A stretch of 64,000 bases of DNA from an uncultured Actinomycetota bacterium (lineage in GTDB: Bacteria; Actinomycetota; Actinomycetes; JACCUZ01): NCBI GenBank assembly GCA_963697675.1, contig CAVOOW010000006.1, positions 1,203,518 through 1,267,517 on the forward strand, written 5' to 3'. Positions 2 to 15,686 of this stretch are shown piece after piece. The notes beneath the pieces are model-generated. The model was not told the origin of the DNA. It did not search any database and was given only the letters and a program-made list of their open reading frames with translations. Positions within the stretch are counted from its first letter, which is position 1. The number at the start of each line of letters is the position of its first letter. A program made the translations under genes and the position numbers.

Positions 2-502
2 GGCACCGGGTGGCCGTGGGCGCTGGCCGCCGTCGACCACGGACGCGCTCTGCTCGCCGCGCCCGGGGACGCGCCCGCGCTGTTCGAGAGCGCCTTGGCA
101 CATCACGCCCACCCTGGCGGCCGACCGTACGACCAGGCTCGGACCCACCTCGCATACGGGGAGTTCCTGCGCCGCAACCAGCGTCGCGTCGACGCGCGCA
201 CCCACCTGCGGGCAGCGTTGGAGACCTTCGAGGACCTGCGCGCGGAGCCGCTGGCCGCGCGAGCAACCCAGGAGCTTCGCGCCTCCGGGGAGACGGCCCG
301 CAAACGTGACCCGTCGACGCAGCTCAAGCTCACCCCGATGGAGCGCCAGGTCGCCGAGCTGGTAGGCCAAGGGATGTCGAACAAGGACGTCGCCGCCCAG
401 TGCTGGGTGTCGCACCGGACCGTCGCCTTCCACCTGCGCAACATCTTCACCAAGGCAGGAGTCACCTCCCGCGCCCAACTCGCCCAGCTCGACCTGGCAT
501 AG
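2..502 (+). CDS. LuxR-family transcriptional regulator, C-terminal fragment (gene continues upstream of window)
   Basis: Frame-2 translation is open from base 2 and ends in a LuxR-type HTH (LTPMERQVAELVGQGMSNKDVA...VSHRTVAFHLRNIFTKAGV). No start codon lies within the window. Confidence 0.7.
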   Translation, partial: GTGWPWALAAVDHGRALLAAPGDAPALFESALAHHAHPGGRPYDQARTHLAYGEFLRRNQRRVDARTHLRAALETFEDLRAEPLAARATQELRASGETARKRDPSTQLKLTPMERQVAELVGQGMSNKDVAAQCWVSHRTVAFHLRNIFTKAGVTSRAQLAQLDLA

Positions 503-563
503 CGGCAAAGGCCGGGACGAGTAGCACCATGGATGTGCCGCATCTTGTGGCCAGTCGCGATGA

Positions 564-1574
564 TCAGCGGACTTCAAGCACGGAGGGGCCAGCTGCTACC
601 AGCTCACCGACGACCGGGAACCCGGGGACTTCCCCTGCGATGAGCAGGCCGCCAGACGTCTGGGCGTCGGCGAGCAGCAGCAGCTCCTCCTCGGTGACGG
701 ATGACGTCAGACGCGGCCGCACCCAGTCGAGGTTGCGTCTGGTACCGCCGCTCACGAACCCGTCGCGTAACGCCTCGCGTGAATCGTCGAGGTAAGGCAC
801 TTTCGACGAGTCGACCACGGCGGTGAGTCCGCTTGCGCGGGCGAGCTTGAAGAGGTGGCCGAGCAACCCGAACCCGGTGACATCAGTGGCGCACCGGGCG
901 CCGAGAGCGAGCGCCAGCTCGGCGGCCTCCTTGTTCAGCGTCGTCATCGCGGCCACCGCCTGTGGGAAGTTCTCGCCTGTGGCCTTGTGCCGGCTGTTGA
1001 GGACGCCTATGCCGAGAGGTTTGGTCAGGGTCAGCGGTAGTCCCGCCACACCCGCGCTGTTGCGCAGCAACCGTTCGGGGTGAGCCAGGCCGGTGACCGC
1101 CATGCCGTATTTGGGTTCGGGGTCGTCGACGCTGTGGCCGCCCGCGAGATGGCATCCCGCGATCCGGGCGACCTCCGCACCGCCGCGCAGCACCTCGGCG
1201 GCAAGGCCGAGGGGCAGAACGTCGCGGGGCCACGACAGGAGGTTGACCGCCACCAACGGCATTCCGCCCATCGCGTAGACATCGGAGAAGGCGTTCGCGG
1301 CCGCGATTCGGCCCCAGTCATAGGCATCATCTACAACCGGGGTGAAGAAGTCTGCCGTCGCGACGACCGCTTGGTCACCGGAGATGCGCACGACCGCGCC
1401 GTCGTCACCATCCTCGAGGCCCACAAGTAACTCTCCGTGCCCGAAGATCTCGGACGGCAGTGGGCCTAGGTCGGCGACCATTTCTTCGAGCTCACCCGGC
1501 GGGATCTTGCACGCGCATCCGCCGCCATGGGCGTAGGACGTGAGACGACCAGCCGGTCGCTGTTCCCCGGTCAC
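564..1574 (-). CDS. selD: selenide, water dikinase (selenophosphate synthetase), Cys-type
   Basis: HGGGCACKIPP motif near the N-terminus and an AIR-synthase-like body. The ORF extends to 1661, but the GTG at 1574 gives an E. coli-like N-terminus. The active-site residue is Cys, not Sec. Confidence 0.8.
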   Translation of the reverse strand: MTGEQRPAGRLTSYAHGGGCACKIPPGELEEMVADLGPLPSEIFGHGELLVGLEDGDDGAVVRISGDQAVVATADFFTPVVDDAYDWGRIAAANAFSDVYAMGGMPLVAVNLLSWPRDVLPLGLAAEVLRGGAEVARIAGCHLAGGHSVDDPEPKYGMAVTGLAHPERLLRNSAGVAGLPLTLTKPLGIGVLNSRHKATGENFPQAVAAMTTLNKEAAELALALGARCATDVTGFGLLGHLFKLARASGLTAVVDSSKVPYLDDSREALRDGFVSGGTRRNLDWVRPRLTSSVTEEELLLLADAQTSGGLLIAGEVPGFPVVGELVAAGPSVLEVR

Positions 1575-1621
1575 CTCGTGACCATAACGCCGCTCGGCGG
1601 TCCCGGGACTGGAGATCTGTT

Positions 1622-2993
1622 TTGGCTCCCTTCGCGCTCTTCGACCAGTCCGCATGGGCACGTACAGTCTCTGTCGTGGCCACGGAGGCGCCCGGCAACG
1701 CCCACGACGCCCGAAGCGCTGTGCCCCGCACCGATCTCGTACTTGCCGACCCGCGTCTCAACGAGGCAATGCGGCGACTGGGTAGCACGACTGTCAAGGC
1801 GGCCGTCCACGAGGCCCAGGACCAGGCCCGCCGCGGCGACATCGCCGCCGCTGCAGTGGCTGATGCGGCCGTCGCCGCCCTCCCCGAGACCGCCTGCTCC
1901 ATGCAGCGGGTGATCAACGCCACGGGCGTGCTGCTGCATACGAACCTCGGTCGTGCCTCGTTGTCCCAGGCTGCCATCGACGCCATGGTGGCCTCCGCCG
2001 GGCCAACCGACATCGAGCTCGACCTCGCCACCGGGCGGCGGGCCGGGCGAGGCAGGGGGGCGCTGGCCGCGCTAGCCGCAGCCGTGCCGGACGCAGAGGC
2101 AGTGCATGTGGTCAACAACGGCGCCGCCGCACTTCTGCTGGCAGCGACGGTGCTCGCGCCCGGGAAGGAGATCATCGTCAGCCGCGGAGAACTGGTCGAG
2201 ATCGGCGACGGCTTCCGCATCCCGGATCTGCTGGCCAGCACGGGCGCGAGGCTGCGCGAGGTCGGCACCACCAACCGCACTACGTTGGCCGATTACGAAC
2301 AAGCGGTCGTGGCCGAGACCGGATTCGTGCTCAAGGTGCATCCCTCGAACTTCGTTGTGTCGGGCTTCACCTCGGCGGTACCGGTGGAGGCGCTGGCTGC
2401 GCTAGGGCCACCGTTGGTGTGCGACATCGGCTCCGGGCTGCTGGCCAGGAACCCGGACCTGCCGGACGAGCCGGACGCCAGAACCACGCTGCGGGCCGGC
2501 GCTGCACTGGTCACTGCGAGCGGCGACAAGCTGCTTGGTGGCCCGCAGTGCGGCCTGCTTTTCGGCCGCGCCGAGATCGTGGAAACCCTCCGCCGTCACC
2601 CGGTGGCCCGCGCGCTCCGGGTCGACAAGCTGACGTTAGCGGCTCTTGAGGCGACGCTGCGGGGTCCGACGACACCAACCGCGTTGGCGCTGGTCTCGAC
2701 CTACAGGCGATCTGTATGACCGGGCCGAGCGCCTGGCGGCCGCGCTCAATGGCGCGGGCCATGACGCCGTCGCTGTCGAAACGGAGGCGGGCGTCGGCGG
2801 CGGAGGCGCGCCGGGGGTGATCCTGCGCAGCGCTGCCGTCAGCCTGCCCGAGACCTACGCTGCTCGGCTGCGCTCGCACCGGCCGGCCGTACTCGGGCGC
2901 CTCCGATTCGGTCGGTGCTTCCTCGACCTGTACGCCGTGCCGCCCGGTGACGATCAAGCCATGCTCGAGGCGGTCATGACATGCCGGACGTGA
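1622..2993 (+). CDS. selA: L-seryl-tRNA(Sec) selenium transferase, apparently frameshifted near 2695-2720
   Basis: The N-terminal 365 aa (1622-2719) contain RVINATGVLLHTNLGRA. The SelA C-terminal domain (DLYDRAERLAAAL...GGGGAPGVILRS...FLDLYAVPPGDDQAMLEAV) continues in the +1 frame to 2993. Combined length is ~457 aa, about that of E. coli SelA. Confidence 0.7.
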
Positions 2994-3075
2994 CGCAGGC
3001 CCGCCTGCTCAGCGCACACGTCCGAGCAGGATCCGGTCGCCAGATTCGGGACACTGCCTGGCTACGATCGGGCAT

Positions 3076-3171
3076 GGAGGCGTGTGTGTTCCTGGTGGGC
3101 GCCCCGGTCTTCAACACCGGTGAGCGGCGGCATCCGTCGCTGGCGGGTTCGATTCCCGTCCGCCTCCGCCA
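3076..3171 (+). tRNA. selC: tRNA-Sec (anticodon UCA)
   Basis: 96 nt including a 3' GCCA. GGAGGCG/CGCCTCC acceptor stem, anticodon stem CCGGT/ACCGG with loop CUUCAAC (UCA at 3111-3113), an 8-bp long variable arm and a T-loop TTCGATT. It lies between selA and selB. Confidence 0.85.
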
Positions 3172-3259
3172 CGCCCATTCGCGGCCCTCGAACCAGGCCT
3201 GTTGGACCGCACCCCATGTCGTCATCGGACGCCGAACGCGTCAGAGCCGTGATGCTCTT

Positions 3260-5017
3260 ATGCACGTCATAGCCACTGCCGGGCATGTCGACCATGGCAA
3301 GTCCACGCTGGTGCGTGCGCTGACCGGGATGGAGCCCGACCGCTGGGCCGAGGAGCGGCGCCGTGGCCTGACCATCGACCTCGGGTACGCCTGGACGACG
3401 CTTCGATCCGGCGAAACCCTCGCGTTCGTCGACGTACCGGGTCACCAACGCTTCATTGCCAACACCCTGGCCGGCATTGGCCCAGCTCCCGCGGTGCTCT
3501 TCGTGGTCGCCGCCGACCAAGGCTGGCGCCAGCAGTCCGAGGAGCATCTCGGCGCCGTCGACGCCCTAGCTATCACCCATGGGCTGCTCGCCGTCACGCG
3601 CTGCGACCTCGCCGATCCAGAGCCGACCATGATCGAGGCGCTCGAGATCTTGGCGCAGTCAAGTTTGGGCGAGGTCGAGGCGGTCGCTGTTTCCGGCTCG
3701 ACCGGAGTTGGGCTCGACGAGCTCCGAGCCGCCCTCGGTCGACTTGTGGCGCGACTGCCTGCACCCGAGGCCTCGGGCCGCGTCCGGCTGTGGATAGACC
3801 GCGCCTTTACCATCCGCGGCAGCGGCGTCGTGGTCACGGGCACGCTCGGCGCCGGTCGCCTCCGAGCCGGTGACGAGTTGCAGCTTCGCGACAGGATCGT
3901 ACGAGTGCGCGGCCTGCAGTGCCTGGGCCGGCCGAGCACTGAGGTCTCCGCAGTCGCCAGAGTCGCGGTCAACCTGCGCGACGTCGCCCTCGACGACGTG
4001 CGGAGAGGCGACGCACTCCTCACACCCGGCGCCTGGCGGACGACCAGAGAGCTCGACGTCCGGATGTCGCGAAACCCACGTGACATGCCTGGCGAGCAGT
4101 TGCTGCATCTAGGAACCGCCGCGCTACCCGTCCACCTGCGACCCCTCGGAAGTGACACCGCACGACTGATCCTGCGCGACGAAGTCGCGCTCGGGACAGG
4201 TGATCGAGGTGTGCTGCGTTCACCTGCCACGCCGGTGACCGGTGCGGGCGTGCTCATTCTCGACGCGGACCCGCCAGCTATCCGCCGACGTGGCGCGGCC
4301 CGCGCTCGGGCCGCTGCTCTCGAGCAGGCGACCGGCCTGCTCGAGCTCGCGGCCGAGGTCGAGCGGCGAGGAGCTGTCCGGCGAGCCGAGCTGGTTGCCC
4401 TTGGAGTGCCGCTCGACGACGTCGAGGAAGTTCATGTCGCCGGCGACTGGTTGGTCGCACGTCGCCAGTGGGCGGAATGGTGCCAGGCACTTGGGGAGGC
4501 GGTGGACACCCACGCGCGCAACGAACCTCTTGCGACAGGCCTGCCGCACGAGGCTGCCCGCCGAGCGTTGGCGTTACCTGATATCCGACTACTTCAACCG
4601 CTTCTGGAATCGACCGGGTTGGAGAGCGCCGACGGCCGGGTCCGTCGCCCGGGGACGGTACCCCGGTTGGGGGCAGCCGAGTCCGGGCTGCAACAACTCG
4701 AGCAACGGCTATCCGTCGACGCATTCGATGCTCCCGAGCGGCACGACATCGAGGCCCTCGGCCTTGGCCCGCGAGAACTCGCAGCCGCAGCGGGCGCCGG
4801 GCGCATCCTGCGCCTCCCCGGCGAGGTTGTGCTCCTCCCTGATACGCCGGCGCGCGCGATGCGGATTCTTGCCGAGCTCTCGCAACCGTTCACGACCAGT
4901 GCCGCCCGCCAGTCGCTCGGCGCGACCCGACGGGTGACAATTCCGCTGCTCGAACACCTTGACGGCCTGGGGTGGACGCGACGCCTCGACGCGTCGCGCC
5001 GGGAAGTCGTCCGGTGA
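3260..5017 (+). CDS. selB: selenocysteine-specific elongation factor
   Basis: Starts [17 protein letters not shown] (GTPase P-loop), ~585 aa with C-terminal winged-helix-like region. The ORF's in-frame upstream extension overlaps the tRNA-Sec and was trimmed. Confidence 0.85.
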
Positions 5018-5041
5018 CGTCGCGAGCCCTATCGGCGGCTG

Positions 5042-5929
5042 TTAGCCCTCAAGGAAGACGCCGTTGCGCTCGCGTCCCATCATGGCGTAGCCGAGGTTGG
5101 TGTTCGCTGCGTGGGACTTGAAGCTGAACCCAAGTCCGGATCCACTGAACGACCCAGTCGAACGCGCGCGAGCGAAACTGCCTAAGAACGCCGCCGGGTC
5201 GGTGGGCGGCACGGTGGAGCCCTTGCCGCGAGGTTGCCGGTGCTCGATGGCCTCCCACTTGACAGTGAAACTGACGGTCGCGGGAACCATGTTCGGTCCC
5301 CCGAACTGGAAGCTGTCGATGACCGAAACATCGCGGGCTTCCAGGGTCGCGCGTCGCCCGTCATGACTCACCTTGAAGGCGTCCTGGGGGATCGGAACCA
5401 CCCAGAACAACCCTGACGGCTGAACGCCACCGTTGTAGTCGTGCACCTGAGAGCCCGAACCGGGCTCGAAGAGATCAATTCAAACGAAACCGAATGCGCC
5501 GTGTTGCGCCGTGCCGTCCGCGGCGATGTAGCGCCCACGGAAGGCACGCATGTCGGTCTCCAGGTTGTACTGCTTGCCGTCGCTACCCGTGGCCGTCCCG
5601 GCGTGGAAGGCCAGGCTGGTGAAACCGGATCGGTCGGTGATAGCGCTGGGGTCAACGTCTAGACCCTGCAGCGTGAGCCCGCTGTATGGCAACGTGATCT
5701 CCGGTGACCCCGGCGCCCAGACGTGTATCCCGGGTAGCCCGGGGTCGAAACCGCCAGGGATCGGCTGCGGCTGCGGCAAAACGCCGCTCCGTTCGTGAGC
5801 CTGCGCGGGAGTGGCGACGCCAACGCTGGATCCAACAACCGCCGCGGCACCGGCAAACGCTCCGTACTTCAGGACGTCTCTGCGGCCTGGCTTGTCTGGG
5901 GATACCCCGGCATTTGCGCTGACACCCAT
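5042..5929 (-). CDS. Tat-signal secreted protein of unknown family with in-frame TGA (candidate selenoprotein; Sec codon at 5480-5482)
   Basis: Two same-frame ORFs (5480..6145 and 5042..5446) are separated only by TGA. GGAGGG SD lies 4 nt before the ATG at 5929; twin-arginine signal (SPDKPGRRDVLKYGAFAGAAAVV...ATPAQA). GC3 is high on both sides of the TGA; a hairpin follows 12 nt downstream. Confidence 0.5.
5451..5467 (-). promoter_or_regulatory. candidate SECIS-like hairpin (GAGCCCG-GUU-CGGGCUC) 12 nt downstream of the in-frame UGA
   Basis: Perfect 7-bp GC-rich stem with G/U-containing apical loop inside the coding sequence. Its position matches where bacterial SECIS elements sit. Confidence 0.4.
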
Positions 5930-6382
5930 ATCGCCCTCCGGCGTAGGACGGCCGCTCATCAGGGCGACCGCGAGGGGTTGCGACGCCTTCAGAGTTCTCC
6001 TGGCGCCGGGGGGTGTCAAGGCCCTGGCGACGGCGGCCGGAAGGTTCAGCGTCGTAACCGGCATAGCTCGCCTTTTGGCGCGGACCCGGGCAACCCAGCC
6101 ACGGCGTGCAGCACGTGAGAGCGTTCTCGGCCACGTCCACGGCATTCAAGGAGAAAGACGCCTGATACATCTGTTCGCGGGCGCTCCCGTGTGTTGCTCT
6201 TGACTCGTACCGGCACCTGCTGGCATGGAGTCTGGTCGCGTTGGGGTGATGGAATCGGCGGCCTGCACGGGGCTCTCAGGTGCGATCACTTCGGGCCGGG
6301 CTCTGCGATGAGCGGCCACTCTCGCTACCCGAGTCGACGGATCAACGTGACATCGGATCCAGGAGCCTTTGCGGGAGGACAC

Positions 6383-7513
6383 GTGACTTACGAACGGGCG
6401 CTGACGGACGTTGTAGATGAAGTGATAGCACCCGGTGCCGTCGAGGTGGATCGCTCCGGGTCGTTCCCCCGCCGCCAGATCGAGGCGCTGGGGGCGGCAG
6501 GACTGCTGGGCCTGACCGTGCCCGCGGAGTTGGGCGGTGGTGGGCAAGGGATGCGGGCCGCGGCAATTGTCGTCCGCGAGTTGGGAGCCGCGTGCGGCTC
6601 GACGGCCATGATCGTGATGATGCACTACAGCGCGACCGCGGCCCTGGTTGCTGGAAACCGACAGGAAACGTTGCGTGAGATTGCCACCGGCCGGCATCTG
6701 ACGACGTTGGCGTTTTCCGAGTTTGGCTCCCGGAGTCACTTTTGGGCCCCGGTCAGCACCGCGACGGCTGAGGGCGACGACGTGCTGCTTGATGCACAGA
6801 AGAGCTGGGTGACGGCTGCCGGGGAGGCCGACAGCTACGTCTGGTCCAGCCGGCCGCTTGCCGTCGCCGGGCCGATGACGTTGTGGCTTGTCCCGTCCAA
6901 CGCTGAAGGTCTGCGTGTGCCGTCACCCTTTGACGGGCTCGGGCTTCGCGGGAATGCGTCATCCCCGGTGACGGCCGACGGTGTCCGCGTGAAATCTGCA
7001 GCGATGCTCGGTGCTGACGGTGCAGGATTGGATCTTGCGTTGTCGACAGTGCTCCCACTTTTCCTTGTCCTGAACGCGTCGGCCAGCGTCGGCCTGATGA
7101 AAGCCGTAGCCGCCGAGACCGCCGAGCACTTGCAGAAAACTCAGTTACAGCACCTCTCGCAGTCGTTGGCGCAGCAGGCCGGACCGAGGGCGCATCTGGC
7201 GCAGCTGCGCATCGAAGCCGACCGCAGCCGTGCGTTTGTCGATGACACCATCACCGCGGTGGAGGACGGTCGCCAAGACGCGATGGTCCAGGTGCTGGGA
7301 GTAAAGGCCGCGGCGGCTGAGGCCGCCGCGTATGCGGCCGACCTCGCGCTGCGCGCATGCGGTGGGTCGGCGTTCCGCAAGGAGTCACCAATCGAACGCC
7401 GGTTCCGCGACTCGCGGGCCGCGCGAGTCATGGCCCCGACGACGGAAGCGTTGCACGACTTCGTCGGTCGGGTCCTGTGCGGACTTCCGCTGCTCGATGA
7501 AGCGCCGGCGTGA
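6383..7513 (+). CDS. acyl-CoA dehydrogenase family protein
   Basis: ACAD-like sequence (C-terminal ...GGSAFRKESPIERRFRDSRAARVMAPT). GTG start with GGGAGG SD. Its stop overlaps the start of the next gene. Confidence 0.7.
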   Translation: MTYERALTDVVDEVIAPGAVEVDRSGSFPRRQIEALGAAGLLGLTVPAELGGGGQGMRAAAIVVRELGAACGSTAMIVMMHYSATAALVAGNRQETLREIATGRHLTTLAFSEFGSRSHFWAPVSTATAEGDDVLLDAQKSWVTAAGEADSYVWSSRPLAVAGPMTLWLVPSNAEGLRVPSPFDGLGLRGNASSPVTADGVRVKSAAMLGADGAGLDLALSTVLPLFLVLNASASVGLMKAVAAETAEHLQKTQLQHLSQSLAQQAGPRAHLAQLRIEADRSRAFVDDTITAVEDGRQDAMVQVLGVKAAAAEAAAYAADLALRACGGSAFRKESPIERRFRDSRAARVMAPTTEALHDFVGRVLCGLPLLDEAPA

Positions 7514-8367
7514 CCGCCCCGTTCACGCTGGCAGCCGTCGCCTACGACCCGAAGGTCGTGACCATCTGGGACGGTTTCCGCCACTGGCTGCTCGGTCAGG
7601 GCATCGAGTTTGACTATGTCCTGTACTCGAACTATGAACGCCAAGTCATCGCCCTGCTCGAGGGCAGGGTCGACGTGGCATGGAATTCCCCACTCGCCTG
7701 GGTGCGCTCCCGTCGCCTCGCAGAAACCCGACACGTTCCGGTGCGACCGGTGGCCATGCGCGACACCGACTGTGGACTTACGTCGGTTGTCGTGGTTCGG
7801 GGGGACTCGACGGTGGAATCCGTGCCACAGCTACGCGGCCTGGCGGTGGCCACCGGTGCGATCGACTCGCCCCAGGCCACGCTCCTGCCTTTGTCCCTGC
7901 TGCGCGCCGCCGGGCTACAGCCGTACGTCGATGTCCAGGTCCATCGGTTTGACGTAGGTGTGGGGCTCCATGGTGACCACATCGGCGGCGAACGAGACGC
8001 CGCACGCGCACTCGCGGCCGGCGACGTCGACGCAGCATGCATCTCGGATTCGAGCCTGCTCCTGTTGGCTCAGGAGGGAACGCTGCCATCCGGCTCGGTC
8101 AGAGTCGTCGGGCAAACCGCACCGTATGACCACTGCAACATGACCGCTGGGCCATCGGCCGACTCGGATCTGCTCCAAAGGTTCTGCGAGCTCCTATTCA
8201 GCATGTCCTATGCCGACCCGAAACTGCGACCGCTGTTGGACCTCGAAGGTCTCAAGGAGTGGCGGCGCCCACGTACCGAGGGCTACAACGCGCTCGAGCG
8301 CGCCGTCGACGAGGCGTCCTTCTACGACACTCGGGGAGAAATTCGTGCAGACGAGTATCGACCTTGA
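7510..8367 (+). CDS. PhnD/SsuA-like substrate-binding-fold protein without signal peptide
   Basis: Periplasmic-binding-protein type II fold sequence; no N-terminal signal or lipobox. Translationally coupled to its neighbours. Confidence 0.55.
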   Translation: MTAPFTLAAVAYDPKVVTIWDGFRHWLLGQGIEFDYVLYSNYERQVIALLEGRVDVAWNSPLAWVRSRRLAETRHVPVRPVAMRDTDCGLTSVVVVRGDSTVESVPQLRGLAVATGAIDSPQATLLPLSLLRAAGLQPYVDVQVHRFDVGVGLHGDHIGGERDAARALAAGDVDAACISDSSLLLLAQEGTLPSGSVRVVGQTAPYDHCNMTAGPSADSDLLQRFCELLFSMSYADPKLRPLLDLEGLKEWRRPRTEGYNALERAVDEASFYDTRGEIRADEYRP

Positions 8368-9523
8368 CCAGCTCGGACTGGACGGCGGCGGGCAGCTGCT
8401 GCTCAGCCGGGCGCTCGCGGGCCTTCCCACCGGTTCGCGTCTCGCCGTTCGTGGCAAACACCCAGCACTCCGGGTGCACCTGGCAGCCTGGTGCCGCGCA
8501 CAGGGTCACGCCTTTCATGACAGCCCGGAGCGACCCGCGATAGTAAAGGGCACAGCGCAGGACAGTCGCTGGCGTGGCGCCGCGCGCGCCGGTGATCCAT
8601 TCGGACCACCGGACGCGCACGCCGACAAGCACTGGGGCCTTGCCGCCCGCGGTGCTCTGGTCGAACCCGGGGGACCCCCGCTCGTCACCGACCTGGTCGA
8701 CCGGGAATGGGTCTGGGCCGACATCGCACCACGGTTGTACGCGGCCGCGGCAGCCGGCCAATGGGATCCGACAGCCGCCGTGGACTGGATGGCACCGCTG
8801 ACGATCCCAGATGACATCGAGACGGCCACCGTCCAGATCATGACGTTCCTGGTCGAAAACGAGCAGGCAGCCTTGATCATCCCCGCACGCCTGCTCGGCC
8901 GGCTCCACCCTCATTTCCGTGAAGTGATGCAGCTCCTCGCTGTTCAGGCAGCCGATGAGGCGCGCCACGTCGAAGTCTTCACCCGTCGTGCGCTGTTGCA
9001 CCGCGAGGAGATGGGGGTATCCGGGGCAGGCGGCCGCGCATCCTTGCAAACGCTGCTCGACGAGCCGGACTTCACCCTTTCGGCCTTCCTGCTGTCAGTG
9101 CTCGGGGAGGGCACGTTCCTCGACCTCCTACGGTTCCTGCACCAGTACGCGCCCGATCCCATCACCGCCCGAATCGCCAGGCTGGTTCTACAGGACGAGG
9201 CGCGCCACGTTGCCTTCGGCGTTGCCCACACCGCCCACGTCGCGCGCGCCGACCCCGCCTTCCTTGGCCGGTTGCGCACCGCTGTGGAACGACGTCACTC
9301 CACGCTGCTCGACACCGCGGGACTGAACCAAGACGTGCGCGACTCCCTCGTCATCGTCGCGGCTGGGTCCTGGACACCCGACGCAGTCAGCCACGGCTGG
9401 AACGCAGTCCAGCAGCTGCAACGAGCCATGGACGAGGGGCGTCGGCGCCGACTCGCCCACATCGGGTTCCCACCAGATGAGGCCGCTGAACTATCCGCAA
9501 TGCACACCCGCAACTTCATGTGA
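8345..9523 (+). CDS. DUF2249-like (TusA-fold) N-terminal domain fused to ferritin-like diiron-carboxylate domain
   Basis: Two DEARH (E-x2-H) motifs (DEARHVEVF and QDEARHVAFG) typical of diiron carboxylate proteins. N-terminal ~70 aa resemble DUF2249. GTG start with GGGAGA SD overlaps the upstream gene. Confidence 0.55.
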   Translation: MQTSIDLDQLGLDGGGQLLLSRALAGLPTGSRLAVRGKHPALRVHLAAWCRAQGHAFHDSPERPAIVKGTAQDSRWRGAARAGDPFGPPDAHADKHWGLAARGALVEPGGPPLVTDLVDREWVWADIAPRLYAAAAAGQWDPTAAVDWMAPLTIPDDIETATVQIMTFLVENEQAALIIPARLLGRLHPHFREVMQLLAVQAADEARHVEVFTRRALLHREEMGVSGAGGRASLQTLLDEPDFTLSAFLLSVLGEGTFLDLLRFLHQYAPDPITARIARLVLQDEARHVAFGVAHTAHVARADPAFLGRLRTAVERRHSTLLDTAGLNQDVRDSLVIVAAGSWTPDAVSHGWNAVQQLQRAMDEGRRRRLAHIGFPPDEAAELSAMHTRNFM

Positions 9524-9649
9524 CGTCCGTTTCCAAGCGTCGGACAAGGCCTTGGCTGGCTGGGCTCGACGTCATCGGTCCTACGCATTACCTCCCGTGG
9601 AGACTGACAGCAGCCGGTGCTCGGCGTACCTTCACGGCGAGGAGGAGTC

Positions 9650-10033
9650 ATGGTCGACACGACACATCCCAGCGCCATCGACTGCCTGCTCGTCGCCGTC
9701 CGCGCCGGCCTGGACCGGGTCCAGCCAGCCGAGCTCGCCGACGCGATGGCGGCCGGCGCCATCGTCGTGGATATCCGCCCGGTCGAGCAGCGCCACCGCG
9801 ACGGTACTCTGCCCGGTGCGTTGGTCATCGACCGCAACGTCCTCGAGTGGCGACTGGACCCGAGCAGCCCGCACCGCATCCCCGAGGCGACCAACGCAGA
9901 GCGGCGGATCATCGTGGTTTGCAACGAGGGGTTCAGCTCCAGCCTGGCCGCTGCCACGCTGCGCCAACTCGGCCTGCCGCACGCCACCGACCTTGACGGC
10001 GGCTTCCAGGCGTGGCGGCGCACCGTTCCGTAG
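9650..10033 (+). CDS. rhodanese-like sulfurtransferase (single domain, active-site Cys)
   Basis: IVVCNEGFSSS active-site loop; GGAGGA SD before the ATG at 9650. Confidence 0.7.
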   Translation: MVDTTHPSAIDCLLVAVRAGLDRVQPAELADAMAAGAIVVDIRPVEQRHRDGTLPGALVIDRNVLEWRLDPSSPHRIPEATNAERRIIVVCNEGFSSSLAAATLRQLGLPHATDLDGGFQAWRRTVP

Positions 10034-10058
10034 ATGTGCCATAGCGGCGAGGGCCCAG

Positions 10059-10826
10059 CTACAGCGTCTGGCCGCCGTCAGCGACCAGAGCGTGCCCGGT
10101 GACGAAGGAGGCTGCGTCGGAGCACAGCCAAAGGACAGCTGCGGCGATTTCGTCGGGCTTGCCCATGCGGCCGATCGGTTCTTGGGCGATCACCTTGTCG
10201 CGCCCTTCGGCGGTGTCGCCGGTGAAGCGGTCCATCATTTCGGTGTCGATGATGCCGGGACAGATGGCGTTGATCCGGATACCTGACGTCGCGTAGTCGA
10301 GTGCGGCGTCCTTGGTCAGCCCGACCACGCCATGTTTCGCGGCGGCATATGCGGCGCCGCGTCCAAAGACCTTGATCCCGGCGCCGGAGGAGGTGTTCAC
10401 GATCGAGCCTCCGCCGTGTTGCAGCATCAGCGGGATCTCATACTTCATGCACAGAAAGACCCCGCGGAGGTTGATGGTGATGATCCGGTCCCATTCCTCC
10501 TCGGTGATGTCGGCGGTCGGCTTTGGCTGCTGTTCGGCGCCGGCGTTGTTGAAGGCGTAGTCCAGATGCCCGAAGACCTCGACTGTCTGGTTCAGCGCGG
10601 CCCGGACATCCTCGCCGCGGGTCACGTCGCAGCGAACGGCGAGGGCCTGGCCGCCGAGGTCCTCGATCATGCGGGCGGTCTCTTGGTTGCCGTGCTCGTC
10701 GATGTCCGCGACCACGGTGTTGACGCCTTCGCGGGCGAAGGTCAGTGCGGTGGCACGGCCGATACCGCTGGCGGCGCCGGTCAAGAACACGACCTTGCCG
10801 TCGAGGTTTCCGTTCGTGGCAGTCAT
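10059..10826 (-). CDS. SDR family oxidoreductase
   Basis: [10 protein letters not shown] Rossmann motif and NAG / YxxxK pattern; 255 aa. Confidence 0.8.
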
Positions 10827-10851
10827 CTGCGCTCTCCTGTCTTTGTCAGCA

Positions 10852-11885
10852 CGGGTTCACGGGCGGAGAAGGACCTTGATCGCCTGCCGGGAGTCCATGG
10901 CCTGGTAGCCGGCGGCGGCGCTGCTCGAGCGGCAGCTCCAGGTCGAAGACCCGGCCGGGACGGATGCGTCGGTTCCAGATCCGGTCCATCAGGTCGGGCA
11001 GGAAGCGGCGGACCGGGGCGGGGCCGCCGTGCAGGTGGACGTGGGAGAAGAACAGCTCCTCACCGGCCAGGGACACGTCGTGGGTGACGCCGACGTAGCC
11101 GACGTGCCCGCCGGGGCGGGTGGCATCGGATGGCCTGCATCATCGATTCCTGGGTGCCGACGGCCTCGATCACCGAGTGCGCGCCGAGCCCGTTGGTGAG
11201 GTCCTTGATCGCCTCCACGCCGGCGTCGCCGCGTTCGATCACGATGTCGGTGGCGCCGAACTCCAGCGCGAGTTGCTGGCGCGGCTCGTGTCGGCTCATC
11301 GCGATGATCCGTTCCGCGCCGAGCTGTTGGGCGGCCAGCACCCCGAGCAGCCCGACCGCGCCGTCACCGACGACGGCGACGGTCTTGCCCGGGCCGGCTT
11401 CGGCGGCGACGGCGGCGAACCAGCCGGTGCCGAGGACGTCGGAGGCGGCCAGGAAGTCCGGGACCAGGTCATCGTCGGGGACCTCGGGGGTGGCGACCAG
11501 GGTGCCGTCGGCCAGCGGCACCCGCATCCGCTGCGCCTGGGCGCCGTCCGGGGCGGCGGGCTCGCGGTGGACGCAGGAGGTGTGGTAGCCGGCGCGGCAG
11601 ATCTCGCAGGTGTTGTCGGAGGCGAAGAACGAGCCGACCACGAACTGGCCGGGCCGAATCGTGGTGACCGCGGATCCGACCTCTTCCACGATGCCGGCGT
11701 ACTCGTGTCCCATCGGCGAGGGCTCGGTCGATCGGGTCCGACGCCCCGGTAGGGCCACAGGTCCGACCCGCAGATGCAGGTCGCCGACAGCCGGATGACC
11801 GCATCCGTCGGCGCCAGGATCGTCGGCTCCGGTCGGTCCTCGACCCGGACATCGCCGGGGGCGTACAGGACAGCTACTCGCATGA
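10852..11885 (-). pseudogene. Zn-dependent alcohol dehydrogenase (formaldehyde-dehydrogenase-like), at least 3 frameshifts
   Basis: N-terminus MRVAVLYAPGDVRVEDRPEP...CICGSDLWPYRG in one frame, GHEYAGIVEEVG...core in a second, C-terminus ELFFSHVHLHGGPAPVRR...LELPLEQ in a third, then AAAGYQAMDSRQAIKVLLRP* in a fourth. Confidence 0.6.
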
Positions 11886-13680: not shown

Positions 13681-14760
13681 TCAGTGTCGGTCGACTAACA
13701 GGACTTCGATGGCGTTGTTTCCGTAGCCCAGCCGGTTCCACGGTGGGACGTCGGGCTGTACGTTGCCGGCGGCGTCGGTCGCCCGGGCGCGCAGGGTGTG
13801 GCGTCCGACGTCGTTGCTGTCCCAGACGAACGACCAGTCCTGCCACTGGTAGGGACCCTTTGGCGGGTCCAGCTGCGCGGGGTGCCAGTCCCCTTCGCCG
13901 GTGAGGCTGATGTCGACCTGCGTGACGGGCCCGGTGCCTGACCAGGCTTTTCCACGAACCGTGTAGGGCCCGAGGGGAAGGATGGCGCCGGGAGCGGGGT
14001 CTGTGATGCGGGCACGCACGCGCATGAGGCGCACGGCCTCGTGCGGGCGATCCGGCCACTGGTAGATGTAGTGGCCGGTCTGGAACTCGCCGGTGTAGGC
14101 CTCGGTCAGCACGTCGATCCGCCTCAGCCACTTCACCGAGGCGACGGCATACCAGTGGGGCACGATGAGCCGGAACGGGGCGCCGTGATCGGGCCTGAGC
14201 GGTTCGCCGTTCATCTCGTAGGCGATCAGGATGGCCGATGACGGATCGCTTGCTTCGGAAAGCGGCAACGCGCGGACGAAGGTGAGGTCGTTCTGATTGG
14301 TCTCCGGGAGGATCGCCTGAAGGTGGTACGAGCCGTGATCGGCACCTTCGAACCGGACGTCAACACCCTGGGTCGCTGGCTGCGCTAGCGCGAGTACGTC
14401 GCTCAGCAGGGCGCCGGTCCAACGTGCCGTCGACACGGCGTAGTCGCCCCACGGTTCCCCGGTCGGAAGCGGTCTCATGTCCAGGCGTCCGTTGCCTGCA
14501 CACTCCAGCGTGACCGCCTCATCGTTGGCCGGCAGCGCGCGCAGGTCATCGAGGGTGAGGGTCGTGGGGTTGCCCACGGCACCGCCGATTTCCAAGGTGC
14601 CGTCGTGCGTGGGCAACGCGAAGTTGCTGCGGACGTAGTGAAAGTCGGTGGGGGTGATGTCCCCGACCAGGGCTTGGGGCGGTGCCTCGGCGTTGTAGGG
14701 GGCGGGATTGATCATCTCTAGTGCGGCGCGTGCCGACTCCAGATCGCCTGCGACGGTCAT
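13681..14760 (-). CDS. sulfite-oxidase-family molybdopterin oxidoreductase
   Basis: Oxidoreductase molybdopterin-binding domain plus Mo-cofactor dimerisation domain (HYVRSNF...LECAGNGR...PFRLIVPHWYAVASVKWLRRI). Start is the ATG at 14760; the longer ORF upstream is an antisense artefact. Confidence 0.75.
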   Translation of the reverse strand: MTVAGDLESARAALEMINPAPYNAEAPPQALVGDITPTDFHYVRSNFALPTHDGTLEIGGAVGNPTTLTLDDLRALPANDEAVTLECAGNGRLDMRPLPTGEPWGDYAVSTARWTGALLSDVLALAQPATQGVDVRFEGADHGSYHLQAILPETNQNDLTFVRALPLSEASDPSSAILIAYEMNGEPLRPDHGAPFRLIVPHWYAVASVKWLRRIDVLTEAYTGEFQTGHYIYQWPDRPHEAVRLMRVRARITDPAPGAILPLGPYTVRGKAWSGTGPVTQVDISLTGEGDWHPAQLDPPKGPYQWQDWSFVWDSNDVGRHTLRARATDAAGNVQPDVPPWNRLGYGNNAIEVLLVDRH

Positions 14761-14819
14761 GGGCGCTGTCTTCCTCTCGATTGATCGTGGTGTTGATCGT
14801 CGCCGCGGGCGCTGCGGCG

Positions 14820-15686
14820 TCAGAAGTCGGAATCGTCGAAGCTCGGCTCGCGGCCGTCGTTGAAGGCTCCGATTCCTTCGACGCGGTCGGGGTGGACAGC
14901 GGAGCGCCAGTGGGCGTCCATCATGATCGCGATCGCCTGCTCGATCGGTTGCCCTTCGCCGAGGTGGACGGCGCGTTTGACGGACTGCACCGCCGTTGGT
15001 GAGTTGCTGGCGATCTTGTCCGCGATGCGTCGGGCGGCGAGCATGAGCTCGCCGGGGGAGTGGATCTCGTTGACCATGCCGAGGCGGTAGGCCTCCTGCG
15101 CCGGAACTGGGTCGCCGGTCATGAGCATCTGCAGGGCCTTGCCGCGGGGCAGCAGACGCGGCAGCAGAGCCGGTGAGCCGCCGCCGGCAGCCAGGCCGAG
15201 CATGGCTTCGGGTTGGCCGAACGTCGCGGTCTCGGAGGCGATGATGAAGTCGGTGCTCTGAGCCAGCTCGCAACCGCCGCCGTAGGCGATGCCGTTGACC
15301 GCAGCGAAGATCGGCTTGCGCAGCTGTCGCACGGTGTAGAGGGTGCGGTCGAAGGCCTGGCGCTGTCGCAGCCAGTCCTCCTTGGTCATGCTCTTGCGCT
15401 GTCGCAGGTCGCTGCCGACGGAGAAGGCCCGGTCGCCGGCTCCGGTCAGGACCACGACCCGAACGGCGGTGCGCACCGCGATCGTCTCCACGACCTCGGT
15501 CAGCAGGGCGCCCATCTCCGTGGTGATCGCGTTGTCGGCATGCGGTCGGTTGAGCGTGACCACCGCAACCTGGCCGCCCGCGAGGTAGTCGAGGAGTACG
15601 GGAGCCTCGGTCTCGACGACATCTTGAGGGGGCGGTCCGAAATCGAGGGCCGCCCATCGGTCCGTGCCGGATGAGCTCATCGCCAC
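14820..15686 (-). CDS. enoyl-CoA hydratase/isomerase family protein
   Basis: Crotonase-fold motifs (VVLTGAGDRAFSVGSDL, AAVNGIAYGGGCELAQSTDF). Confidence 0.8.
   Translation of the reverse strand: MAMSSSGTDRWAALDFGPPPQDVVETEAPVLLDYLAGGQVAVVTLNRPHADNAITTEMGALLTEVVETIAVRTAVRVVVLTGAGDRAFSVGSDLRQRKSMTKEDWLRQRQAFDRTLYTVRQLRKPIFAAVNGIAYGGGCELAQSTDFIIASETATFGQPEAMLGLAAGGGSPALLPRLLPRGKALQMLMTGDPVPAQEAYRLGMVNEIHSPGELMLAARRIADKIASNSPTAVQSVKRAVHLGEGQPIEQAIAIMMDAHWRSAVHPDRVEGIGAFNDGREPSFDDSDF

Follow-up and report, generated by a model that had tools for sequence, protein, structure and literature searches.

The DNA analysed here, called the window, is a stretch of 64,000 nucleotides (nt) with a high G+C content (0.69) from an uncultured Actinomycetota bacterium (contig CAVOOW010000006.1). 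On its plus strand, a cassette of three overlapping genes was found downstream of a set of selenocysteine genes. Gene 1 (6383..7513) encodes an acyl-CoA dehydrogenase (ACAD)-fold flavoprotein with the Pfam ACAD N, M, and C domains. Gene 2 (7510..8367) encodes a protein of the PhnD/PtxB fold (PF12974) that is probably cytoplasmic and resembles the substrate-binding protein (SBP)-like Rv1680. Gene 3 (8345..9523) encodes a TusA-fold and ferritin-like protein, a predicted diiron protein according to an AlphaFold2 (AF2) model, Foldseek, and invariant ligand residues. A single-domain rhodanese gene (9650..10033, plus strand; PF00581) follows as a local neighbour and lies outside the conserved cassette. 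Gene 1 starts with a GTG 5 nt past GGGAGGA, and the GTG start codon of gene 2 (7510) shares the sequence GTGA with the TGA stop codon of gene 1. Gene 3 has a GTG start after GGGGAGA and overlaps by 23 nt with gene 2, whose stop codon is at 8365-8367.

An earlier reading of this DNA from the sequence alone, the first-pass annotation, described four translationally coupled genes. All four genes exist at the coordinates above, and the overlaps at 7510/7513 and 8345/8367 are real. However, the likely start codon of the rhodanese gene is the ATG at 9650 after AGGAGG (ribosome-binding site and ATG at 9640-9652), which is 126 nt past the stop codon of gene 3 at 9523. Because of this gap, the rhodanese gene is not translationally coupled to the others. 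The G+C content at third codon positions (GC3) is 0.75-0.77 for selB and the three cassette genes (window 3272-9523), while it is 0.86 for the rhodanese and 0.85 for the downstream short-chain dehydrogenase/reductase (SDR) gene; the range for the rhodanese, SDR, and alcohol dehydrogenase genes is 0.85-0.88 (9617-11758). This difference suggests a compositional boundary after the cassette. No terminator or structured RNA was found between gene 3 and the rhodanese gene (fold z-score -0.04), and the rhodanese gene may be co-transcribed with the cassette locally. No riboswitch or leader was found upstream of the operon; Rfam models at gathering thresholds detected only tRNAs in the whole window, and scanning 5900-6500 with permissive settings gave a chance-level match.

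Is this gene set conserved in other genomes? I collected 69 loci from a one-genome-per-species scan, 80 more from a metagenome scan, and 8 from look-ups of named genomes; individual loci are cited below by L numbers. Neighbouring genes were detected by tblastn, and loci were counted only where the sequence sufficed. Of 106 evaluable loci, 103 were found to have the PhnD-fold gene right beside the diiron gene, and in 85 of 91 the ACAD-like gene is no more than 2.7 kb away. In almost all cassette loci, the three genes are arranged in the order ACAD-SBP-diiron on a single strand. The cassette is present in many Actinomycetota, Acidimicrobiia, Steroidobacteraceae (Gammaproteobacteria), Luteimonas, Pseudoxanthomonas, and Nitrosomonas, as well as in Dehalococcoidia, Melainabacteria, a metagenome-assembled genome (MAG) of Kofleriaceae, a MAG of Planctomycetota, and metagenomes. 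A rhodanese homologue was found within 6 kb of the cassette in none of the 69 genome loci (E 1e-3 or better), and within 6-10 kb of it in only one of 142 related loci (E 1e-8 or better), L073, whose contig is 92% identical to the window. The co-occurrence of all four genes in other genomes thus fails for the rhodanese. Since the PhnD-fold, ACAD, and diiron genes co-occur while the rhodanese recurs in one relative only, conservation extends to a self-contained cassette of three genes, not four. The rhodanese itself (PF00581 at 9e-15, 55 bits; active-site cysteine loop CNEGFSS) is a lineage-specific neighbour outside the conserved system, and it could feed the same pathway. No other conserved neighbour was revealed by clustering of open reading frames (ORFs) or by counting Pfam families in the 103 genes directly next to the cassette; transporter, permease/ATPase, ligase, sulfur-assimilation, sulfonate-transport, and flavin-reductase genes were all without conservation near the cassette in this count.

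Two loci or groups of loci deserve separate mention. In L006, a Streptosporangiaceae MAG and the closest relative in the genome collection (76% identity), the SBP-like gene is internally deleted (5737-5966); only residues 8-59 and 247-283 are left, while the ACAD and diiron genes on either side are intact. Some Dehalococcoidia MAGs (L057-L069, about 6000-8900) have ferritin homologues of about 40% identity without the TusA domain; conserved OsmC-like and MetE-catalytic-domain-like genes come after them, and ACAD and SBP partners are absent. These ferritins are a distinct, likewise uncharacterised subfamily, and they were not used for inference.

Selenocysteine genes are recurrent neighbours of the cassette. 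In the window, selD (564-1661, minus strand; Pfam AIRS domains), selA (1622-2990, plus; Pfam SelA), the tRNA-Sec gene (3076-3171, plus; ARAGORN and Rfam agree), and selB (3272-5017, plus; Pfam SelB-wing) lie directly upstream of the cassette. The linkage was counted in the 98 loci with at least 4 kb of flanking sequence (6-10 kb per locus and 1.03 Mb in total), excluding a doubtful SelB-like match in L031. Within about 10 kb, sel genes or a tRNA-Sec gene were found in 12 of these 98 loci, in addition to the window, in at least five arrangements and in two phyla. According to my own rough arithmetic, which allows up to three sel loci per 5-Mb genome and takes all genomes to use selenocysteine, the chance expectation is less than one in 98 loci.

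The arrangements are as follows. In Streptomyces afghaniensis and S. tibetensis (L156 and L158), the tRNA-Sec gene is followed by contiguous selD-selA-selB-ACAD-SBP-diiron genes on one strand. In three metagenomic loci (L102, L127, and L138), the order is fdnGHI-fdhE-selA-cassette-selB-tRNASec, so that the cassette sits between selA and selB; the beta and gamma subunits of formate dehydrogenase-N were confirmed with NCBIfam in this group, and fdhE was scored in L127. L102 (13250-16087) also has selD, a genuine TIGR04553 binding protein (369 bits, above the cutoff), and a PhnC-like ATPase, and it encodes both periplasmic and cytoplasmic PhnD-fold proteins. In L038 (Sporichthyaceae), genes for the glycine-reductase component C-beta and grdA (selenoprotein A) are followed by SBP-diiron-selD-selA-selB-tRNASec, and L021 is similar. 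In Peristeroidobacter and Steroidobacter (Steroidobacteraceae), selD and selA are on the opposite strand, while the tRNA-Sec gene is located 46 nt before the ACAD gene. Finally, a tRNA-Sec gene lies 150 nt after the cassette in L019 and 3.7 kb upstream of it in L091, and selD lies 5.5 kb off in L083. The presence of at least five distinct arrangements argues for independent linkage events. The first-pass annotation had mentioned organoselenium in a mere aside, and this aside turned out to be the better lead, the cassette being recurrently located in or beside sel clusters.

The two Streptomyces species have in common seven small genes (100-3550) upstream of the operon consisting of tRNA-Sec, selDAB, and the cassette, one of which is MauE/DoxX-like. 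The region as a whole may have been acquired horizontally, as a selenium island that brings its own selenoprotein.

What do the three genes encode? Gene 1 has the three-domain ACAD fold, with matches to PF02771, PF02770, and PF00441 all above the gathering thresholds. Its top NCBIfam match is NF049984 (Rv1679/FadE16) with 370 bits against a cutoff of 600, and the next family scores 128 bits. In direct comparison, SCAD matches gene 1 at 3e-35 (125 bits) and DszC with 53 bits; gene 1 is therefore nearer to true ACADs than to DszC, and the label of a DszC-like flavin enzyme given to it at first is not supported. It was revealed that the catalytic YEGT motif of SCAD aligns with MAPT in gene 1 and that the alternative base position in helix G of IVD and LCAD is occupied by Phe. 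The MAPT sequence is kept in 41-42 of 48 sequences, the Rv1679 type included. Since both canonical catalytic carboxylate bases are absent, gene 1 is predicted to be an ACAD-fold flavoprotein unable to use the canonical dehydrogenation mechanism. The family-wide replacement of the catalytic glutamate bears out the initial argument against fatty-acid beta-oxidation. Non-dehydrogenase enzymes such as 3-sulfinopropanoyl-CoA desulfinase, DszC, and SfnB share with gene 1 the ACAD fold, the loss of the canonical Glu base, and a secondary hidden Markov model (HMM) similarity. However, gene 1 scores only 60-97 bits against these families, whose cutoffs are 430-850, and it lacks an accompanying flavin reductase or CoA-activating enzyme.

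Gene 2 matches PF12974 at 5e-29 (101.7 bits, against a gathering threshold of 27) and NF049985 (Rv1680 SBP-like) with 226 bits (cutoff 400). The next NCBIfam family is TIGR04553, the putative selenate ABC transporter substrate-binding protein. The AF2 model of gene 2 has a predicted local distance difference test score (pLDDT) of 90.7, and Foldseek retrieved PhnD, PtxB, HtxB, AioX, and ArrX at E 1e-22 to 1e-16 (PhnD at 7e-22). These structural relatives bind phosphite, arsenite, and arsenate. No signal peptide was found in gene 2, the first strand of the model beginning at residue 5, in contrast to the genuine TIGR04553 protein from L102, a true periplasmic relative that has a 24-residue leader and an SSTSG motif. 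Thus, the proposal of an intracellular, leaderless binding-fold protein was well founded. In the cassette binding proteins, the SSTSG position is occupied by (I/A)-D-S-(P/A)-(Q/H), and there is an extra HGDxxxxE insertion. In 51 sequences of both the window and Rv1680 subtypes, the invariant residues include Y12, W20, D35, Y42, W58, R84, D85, D87, D119, S120, H154-G-D156, E161, H208-C209, R240, E246, and W251.

The ligand site of gene 2 was mapped by a HMMER alignment to Te_PtxB and its published contacts (PMC5700983). Y55, S130, and H160 of PtxB align with the invariant Y42, S120, and H154, while T131 and S132 are replaced by P and Q in gene 2 (S120-P-Q). Tyr208 of PtxB caps the ligand and touches its non-oxygen substituent (PMC5700983). 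This residue aligns with the invariant Cys209 of gene 2, and the position of Asp205 in Pm_PhnD corresponds to His208. In summary, gene 2 shares with PtxB, PhnD, HtxB, AioX, ArrX, and TIGR04553 proteins the type-II binding-protein fold and the Tyr, the first Ser, and the His of the ligand site. It differs from them in having no signal peptide and no transporter genes, in the change of STS to S-P-Q(H) after an invariant Asp, in the change of the capping Tyr to an invariant Cys, and in a 7-8 residue insertion after the His.

Gene 3 belongs to a large family, with 5603 matches at E 1e-3 or better in a redundant database and 1269 clusters at 50% identity, whose members have been given either no name or the name 'ferritin-like'. 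The AF2 model (overall pLDDT 75) has an N-terminal domain of the beta-alpha-beta-alpha-beta-beta TusA type (about residues 1-72, pLDDT 83-88), a WGLAARGxxxExGGP linker of low model confidence and high conservation, and then a helical bundle. No close solved structure was found for gene 3. Foldseek placed ADO (TM score 0.75-0.78, normalised by target length), VlmB, and R2lox nearest to the bundle. In 52 homologues, E171/E173, D204-E-A-R-H208, E255, and D284-E-A-R-H288 are invariant. These two glutamates and two ExxH motifs on a four-helix bundle make up a predicted diiron site. Thus, the TusA fold joined to a diiron ferritin-like fold and the two DEARH motifs, both noticed at the first reading, are supported by the model, Foldseek, and the alignment. 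The DUF2249 label is not: no match to DUF2249 (PF10006) was found at E 0.01 or better, and the only HMM matches are sub-threshold, namely TusA (E 0.003) and AurF (PF11583; E 1e-4, 21.8 bits against a gathering threshold of 29.6). PF01206 is annotated on several homologues. Rosetta-stone fusions of the ferritin domain were uninformative.

The relationship of gene 3 to known enzymes is distant. ADO, VlmB, R2lox, AurF, and MiaE share with it the four-helix-bundle core, the E...ExxH...E...ExxH ligands, and the D-E-x-R-H motifs, and AurF, R2lox, and MiaE are weak sequence matches. However, the identity is just 14-20%, under every family threshold, and the gene 3 family alone has the TusA-fold domain at the N-terminus and the conserved WGLAARGxxxE linker. 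The TusA-fold domain is also peculiar. The position of the TusA CPxP cysteine is occupied by G15-A/G16-H/Q17 in 48 of 52 sequences, and the sole commonly conserved cysteine of this domain is C50 in a WCR motif. A TusA/SirA-fold domain encoded beside selD, selA, and selB is known in the YedE/YedF system, and YedF has been linked to SelD by comparative genomics, its role being deduced from the gene neighbourhood (PMC5322559). The CPxP motif is intact in YedF, whose fusion partner is a DsrE-like CGxC domain, in contrast to gene 3, which has lost the cysteine and has a diiron ferritin-like domain as its partner. Anaerobes are the typical hosts of YedE/YedF, while the cassette is found mainly in aerobic soil lineages.

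The best-matching families of genes 1 and 2 are those of the mycobacterial Rv1678-Rv1681 gene set, which consists of a membrane protein (NF049986), a FadE16-type ACAD (NF049984), an SBP-like protein (NF049985), and the radical SAM protein 'MoeX' (NF049973). A plasmid of Mycolicibacterium vanbaalenii (NZ_CP126902.1; L070, 336-11856) has Rv1678, Rv1679, Rv1680, and Rv1681 in this order, overlapping and all past the NCBIfam cutoffs, with 631 bits for NF049984 and 495 bits for NF049985. The window cassette shares with Rv1679/Rv1680 the MAPT substitution, the invariant RDTD, DS, HGD, and HC motifs, the gene order, and translational coupling. However, the scores of 370 and 226 bits are below the cutoffs of 600 and 400, and the window cassette has neither the Rv1678-type membrane protein nor the Rv1681-type radical SAM protein; upstream of it are a protein with a twin-arginine translocation (TAT) signal and the sel genes. 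Judging from these scores and motifs, genes 1 and 2 are a sister subtype of Rv1679/Rv1680, in which the TusA-fold/diiron protein takes the place of the radical SAM partner. Literature searches for Rv1678-Rv1681, including fadE16 and moeX, brought up no functional work.

The surroundings of the M. vanbaalenii genes include AhpD-like, deiodinase-like, glutaredoxin, MFS, CcdA, disulfide-oxidoreductase, and ArsM/DVU_1556-like methyltransferase genes, and a TrsS-like radical SAM '(seleno)protein' gene scoring 335 bits, below the cutoff; it is a redox- and metalloid-flavoured island. A third type was found on a plasmid of Miltoncostaea oceani (NZ_CP064357.1; L071, 1-8850), where an ACAD-SBP pair of the window type (60% identity) is followed by DUF2515 and radical SAM/SPASM genes. 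Upstream of this pair are DoxX, AhpD-like, Rv1681-like radical SAM, GT2, and DUF2064 genes, the last of which is near the threshold of the TIGR04282 arsenosugar-type transferase (126 bits, cutoff 134). The 'hypothetical' protein after the Miltoncostaea pair was considered as a diiron homologue and rejected, as it is the DUF2515 protein. Since the third partner varies (diiron protein in the window, radical SAM protein for Rv1681, and DUF2515 with radical SAM/SPASM in Miltoncostaea), the ACAD-SBP pair forms the core, which can be combined with different oxidative or radical partners. All in all, the window cassette is best read as a widespread, uncharacterised variant of Rv1679-Rv1681 that has a diiron protein as its partner and genomic ties to selenocysteine clusters.

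What is the function of this cassette? I propose, with a probability of about one half, that it assists selenium utilisation as an accessory module, capturing a selenium species and processing it by redox chemistry, either for SelD or in parallel with it. This reading is favoured because sel genes recur near the cassette well beyond the chance expectation, because the nearest named NCBIfam relative of gene 2 after Rv1680 is a putative selenate-binding protein, because the TusA/SirA-fold YedF has already been linked to SelD (PMC5322559), and because paralogous cassettes adjoin TrsS-like (seleno)protein, ArsM-like, deiodinase-like, AhpD-like, and TIGR04282-like genes. The specific chemistry can be proposed with considerably less confidence than the general involvement in selenium utilisation. 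From the folds, the active-site substitutions, and the gene linkage, I infer a substrate, a reaction, and a connection with SelD as follows. Gene 2, which keeps half of the PtxB/PhnD oxyanion constellation (Tyr42, Ser120, and His154), would hold selenite, another selenium oxyanion, or a selenophosphate-like ligand against the thiol of Cys209, or would carry selenium covalently on Cys209. The redox conversion would fall to the flavoprotein, which is unable to catalyse alpha,beta-dehydrogenation, and to the O2-activating diiron domain, while the cysteine-less TusA-fold domain might be a docking module for partners. The product would serve SelD. In the paralogous Rv1679-Rv1681 cassette, the radical SAM partner might carry out an equivalent step without O2.

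The physiological selenium donor to selenophosphate synthetase is a long-standing question, especially in aerobes. The candidate donors, selenocysteine lyases, rhodaneses, and YedE/YedF, are unspecific or typical of anaerobes. In a stronger version, which is tentative and has much less than an even chance of being right, the cassette would be a dedicated and previously unrecognised system for selenium mobilisation and delivery to SelD in aerobes, with selenium on the pocket cysteine of gene 2 and with the diiron protein (O2-dependent) and the Rv1681-type radical SAM protein (O2-independent) doing the same step. If true, this would address the question of the donor and would provide the first function for M. 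tuberculosis Rv1679-Rv1681, among which MoeX has been discussed as a urinary biomarker of tuberculosis. In any case, a cassette that has thousands of homologues and lies within the sel operons of several unrelated lineages is a concrete and testable candidate for selenium handling, and the analysis corrects the routine mis-annotation of its genes as 'acyl-CoA dehydrogenase' and 'phosphonate ABC transporter substrate-binding protein'. In the literature searched, I found no published description of a link between the cassette and selenocysteine, no selenium comparative genomics mentioning the cassette, and no functional work on selenium/ferritin/ACAD/TusA combinations.

Several points weigh against a role in selenium utilisation. 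About 88% of the cassette loci, such as those of Motilibacter, Micromonospora avicenniae, and Plantactinospora soyae, have no sel gene within 5-10 kb, and the sel-linked loci L021 and L038 have no ACAD gene. The selA gene in the window is apparently frameshifted. M. tuberculosis has the paralogous cassette and is not known to use selenocysteine. In gene 2, the oxyanion-binding STS motif is only half kept (S-P-Q), with an invariant Asp in front, and selenide, which is oxygen-labile, is not an obvious match for a diiron enzyme that activates O2. None of the cassette proteins is a selenoprotein; the in-frame stop codons in the 69 loci are natural C-terminal stops or frameshifts. Finally, no experiment or paper supporting any function of the cassette was found.

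Other explanations must be weighed against the selenium-module reading. One of them, which I consider unlikely, is a trio for maturation or biosynthesis independent of chalcogens, in which gene 2 would be a substrate or scaffold modified by its partners (with a protein-derived cofactor on His, Cys, or Trp, or as a THI5-like single-turnover enzyme) and the sel genes would be neighbours owing to co-regulation or because the cassette hitch-hikes with them on mobile islands. This would agree with the modularity of the third partner (diiron, radical SAM, or the DUF2515 and radical SAM/SPASM pair of Miltoncostaea), with the resemblance of the Rv1681-type partner core to peptide-modifying radical SAM maturases, and with the autonomy of the cassette, which has no transporter or ligase. 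The invariant His, Cys, Asp, and Trp residues of gene 2 are unusually many for a simple binder, and some gene 2 homologues have a weak NMT1/THI5 Pfam match. However, the association with sel clusters in at least five arrangements and two phyla, and in particular the insertion of the cassette between selA and selB, would be left unexplained, and no conserved gene for a precursor peptide was found nearby.

The pathway preferred by the first-pass annotation was a four-gene operon for organosulfur oxidation or sulfur relay. Gene 2 would hold a sulfonate or another organosulfur compound, the flavoenzyme and the diiron protein would oxidise it, and the sulfur would then be passed on by the TusA-fold domain and the rhodanese. 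The chemistry of sulfur overlaps with that of selenium, and some of the observations do fit: the process is not beta-oxidation, the third protein has the TusA and diiron folds, gene 1 is secondarily similar to 3-sulfinopropanoyl-CoA desulfinase, SfnB, and DszC, and a DoxX-like membrane protein is encoded beside a paralogous cassette. In addition, a rhodanese predicted to be catalytically competent is encoded 126 nt downstream, and a sulfite-oxidase-like gene lies 4 kb downstream. On the other hand, 141 of the 142 related loci lack the rhodanese, whose GC3 differs, G-A-H stands in place of the CPxP cysteine on which a persulfide relay depends, and sulfur-assimilation, sulfonate-transport, and flavin-reductase genes are not conserved near the cassette, whose recurrent neighbours are sel genes rather than sulfur genes. 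This pathway is thus improbable. The least credible explanation, to be dismissed almost entirely, is that of the database names 'acyl-CoA dehydrogenase' and 'phosphonate transport system substrate-binding protein' and their Pfam domains, namely an ordinary enzyme of beta-oxidation, the binding protein of a phosphonate ABC transporter, and a ferritin unconnected with either, since the catalytic Glu is absent family-wide, gene 2 has an altered STS motif, no signal peptide, and no permease/ATPase nearby, and the three genes keep their order and translational coupling in different phyla.

Between selB and the cassette, a candidate gene for a TAT-exported selenoprotein was found on the minus strand (5042..6145). 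Two ORFs (5042-5446 and 5480-6145) share a frame of about 368 codons that is broken by a single TGA at 5480-5482. A perfect 7-bp hairpin with a GUU loop, resembling a selenocysteine insertion sequence (SECIS), is located at 5451-5467, 12 nt beyond the TGA. The N-terminus has a TAT signal, and no Pfam or NCBIfam model matches the protein. Six database homologues stop exactly before the UGA codon, while the full-length homologues from JGI have a 'W' at this site, which is TGA in the DNA (L161), with a near-identical sequence downstream. One homologue (P0405) has a cysteine at the UGA site. Because of the lone in-frame TGA, the hairpin, the homologues ending at the site, the TGA-coded 'W', and the cysteine homologue, which are the standard signature, this protein is a candidate for a new family of TAT-exported selenoproteins.

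The selA gene of the window is split across two frames near 2692-2712; one frame matches residues 2-338 of a Streptomyces SelA, and the other matches residues 345-437. The break is either a sequencing error or a sign of gene decay, with selA becoming a pseudogene. Downstream of the rhodanese and SDR genes, the zinc-type alcohol dehydrogenase gene (10846-11758, minus strand) looks truncated or split, with ORFs of 232 and 76 amino acids. The sulfite-oxidase-like gene mentioned above encodes a molybdoenzyme of the sulfite-oxidase family and is located at 13681-14898 on the minus strand.

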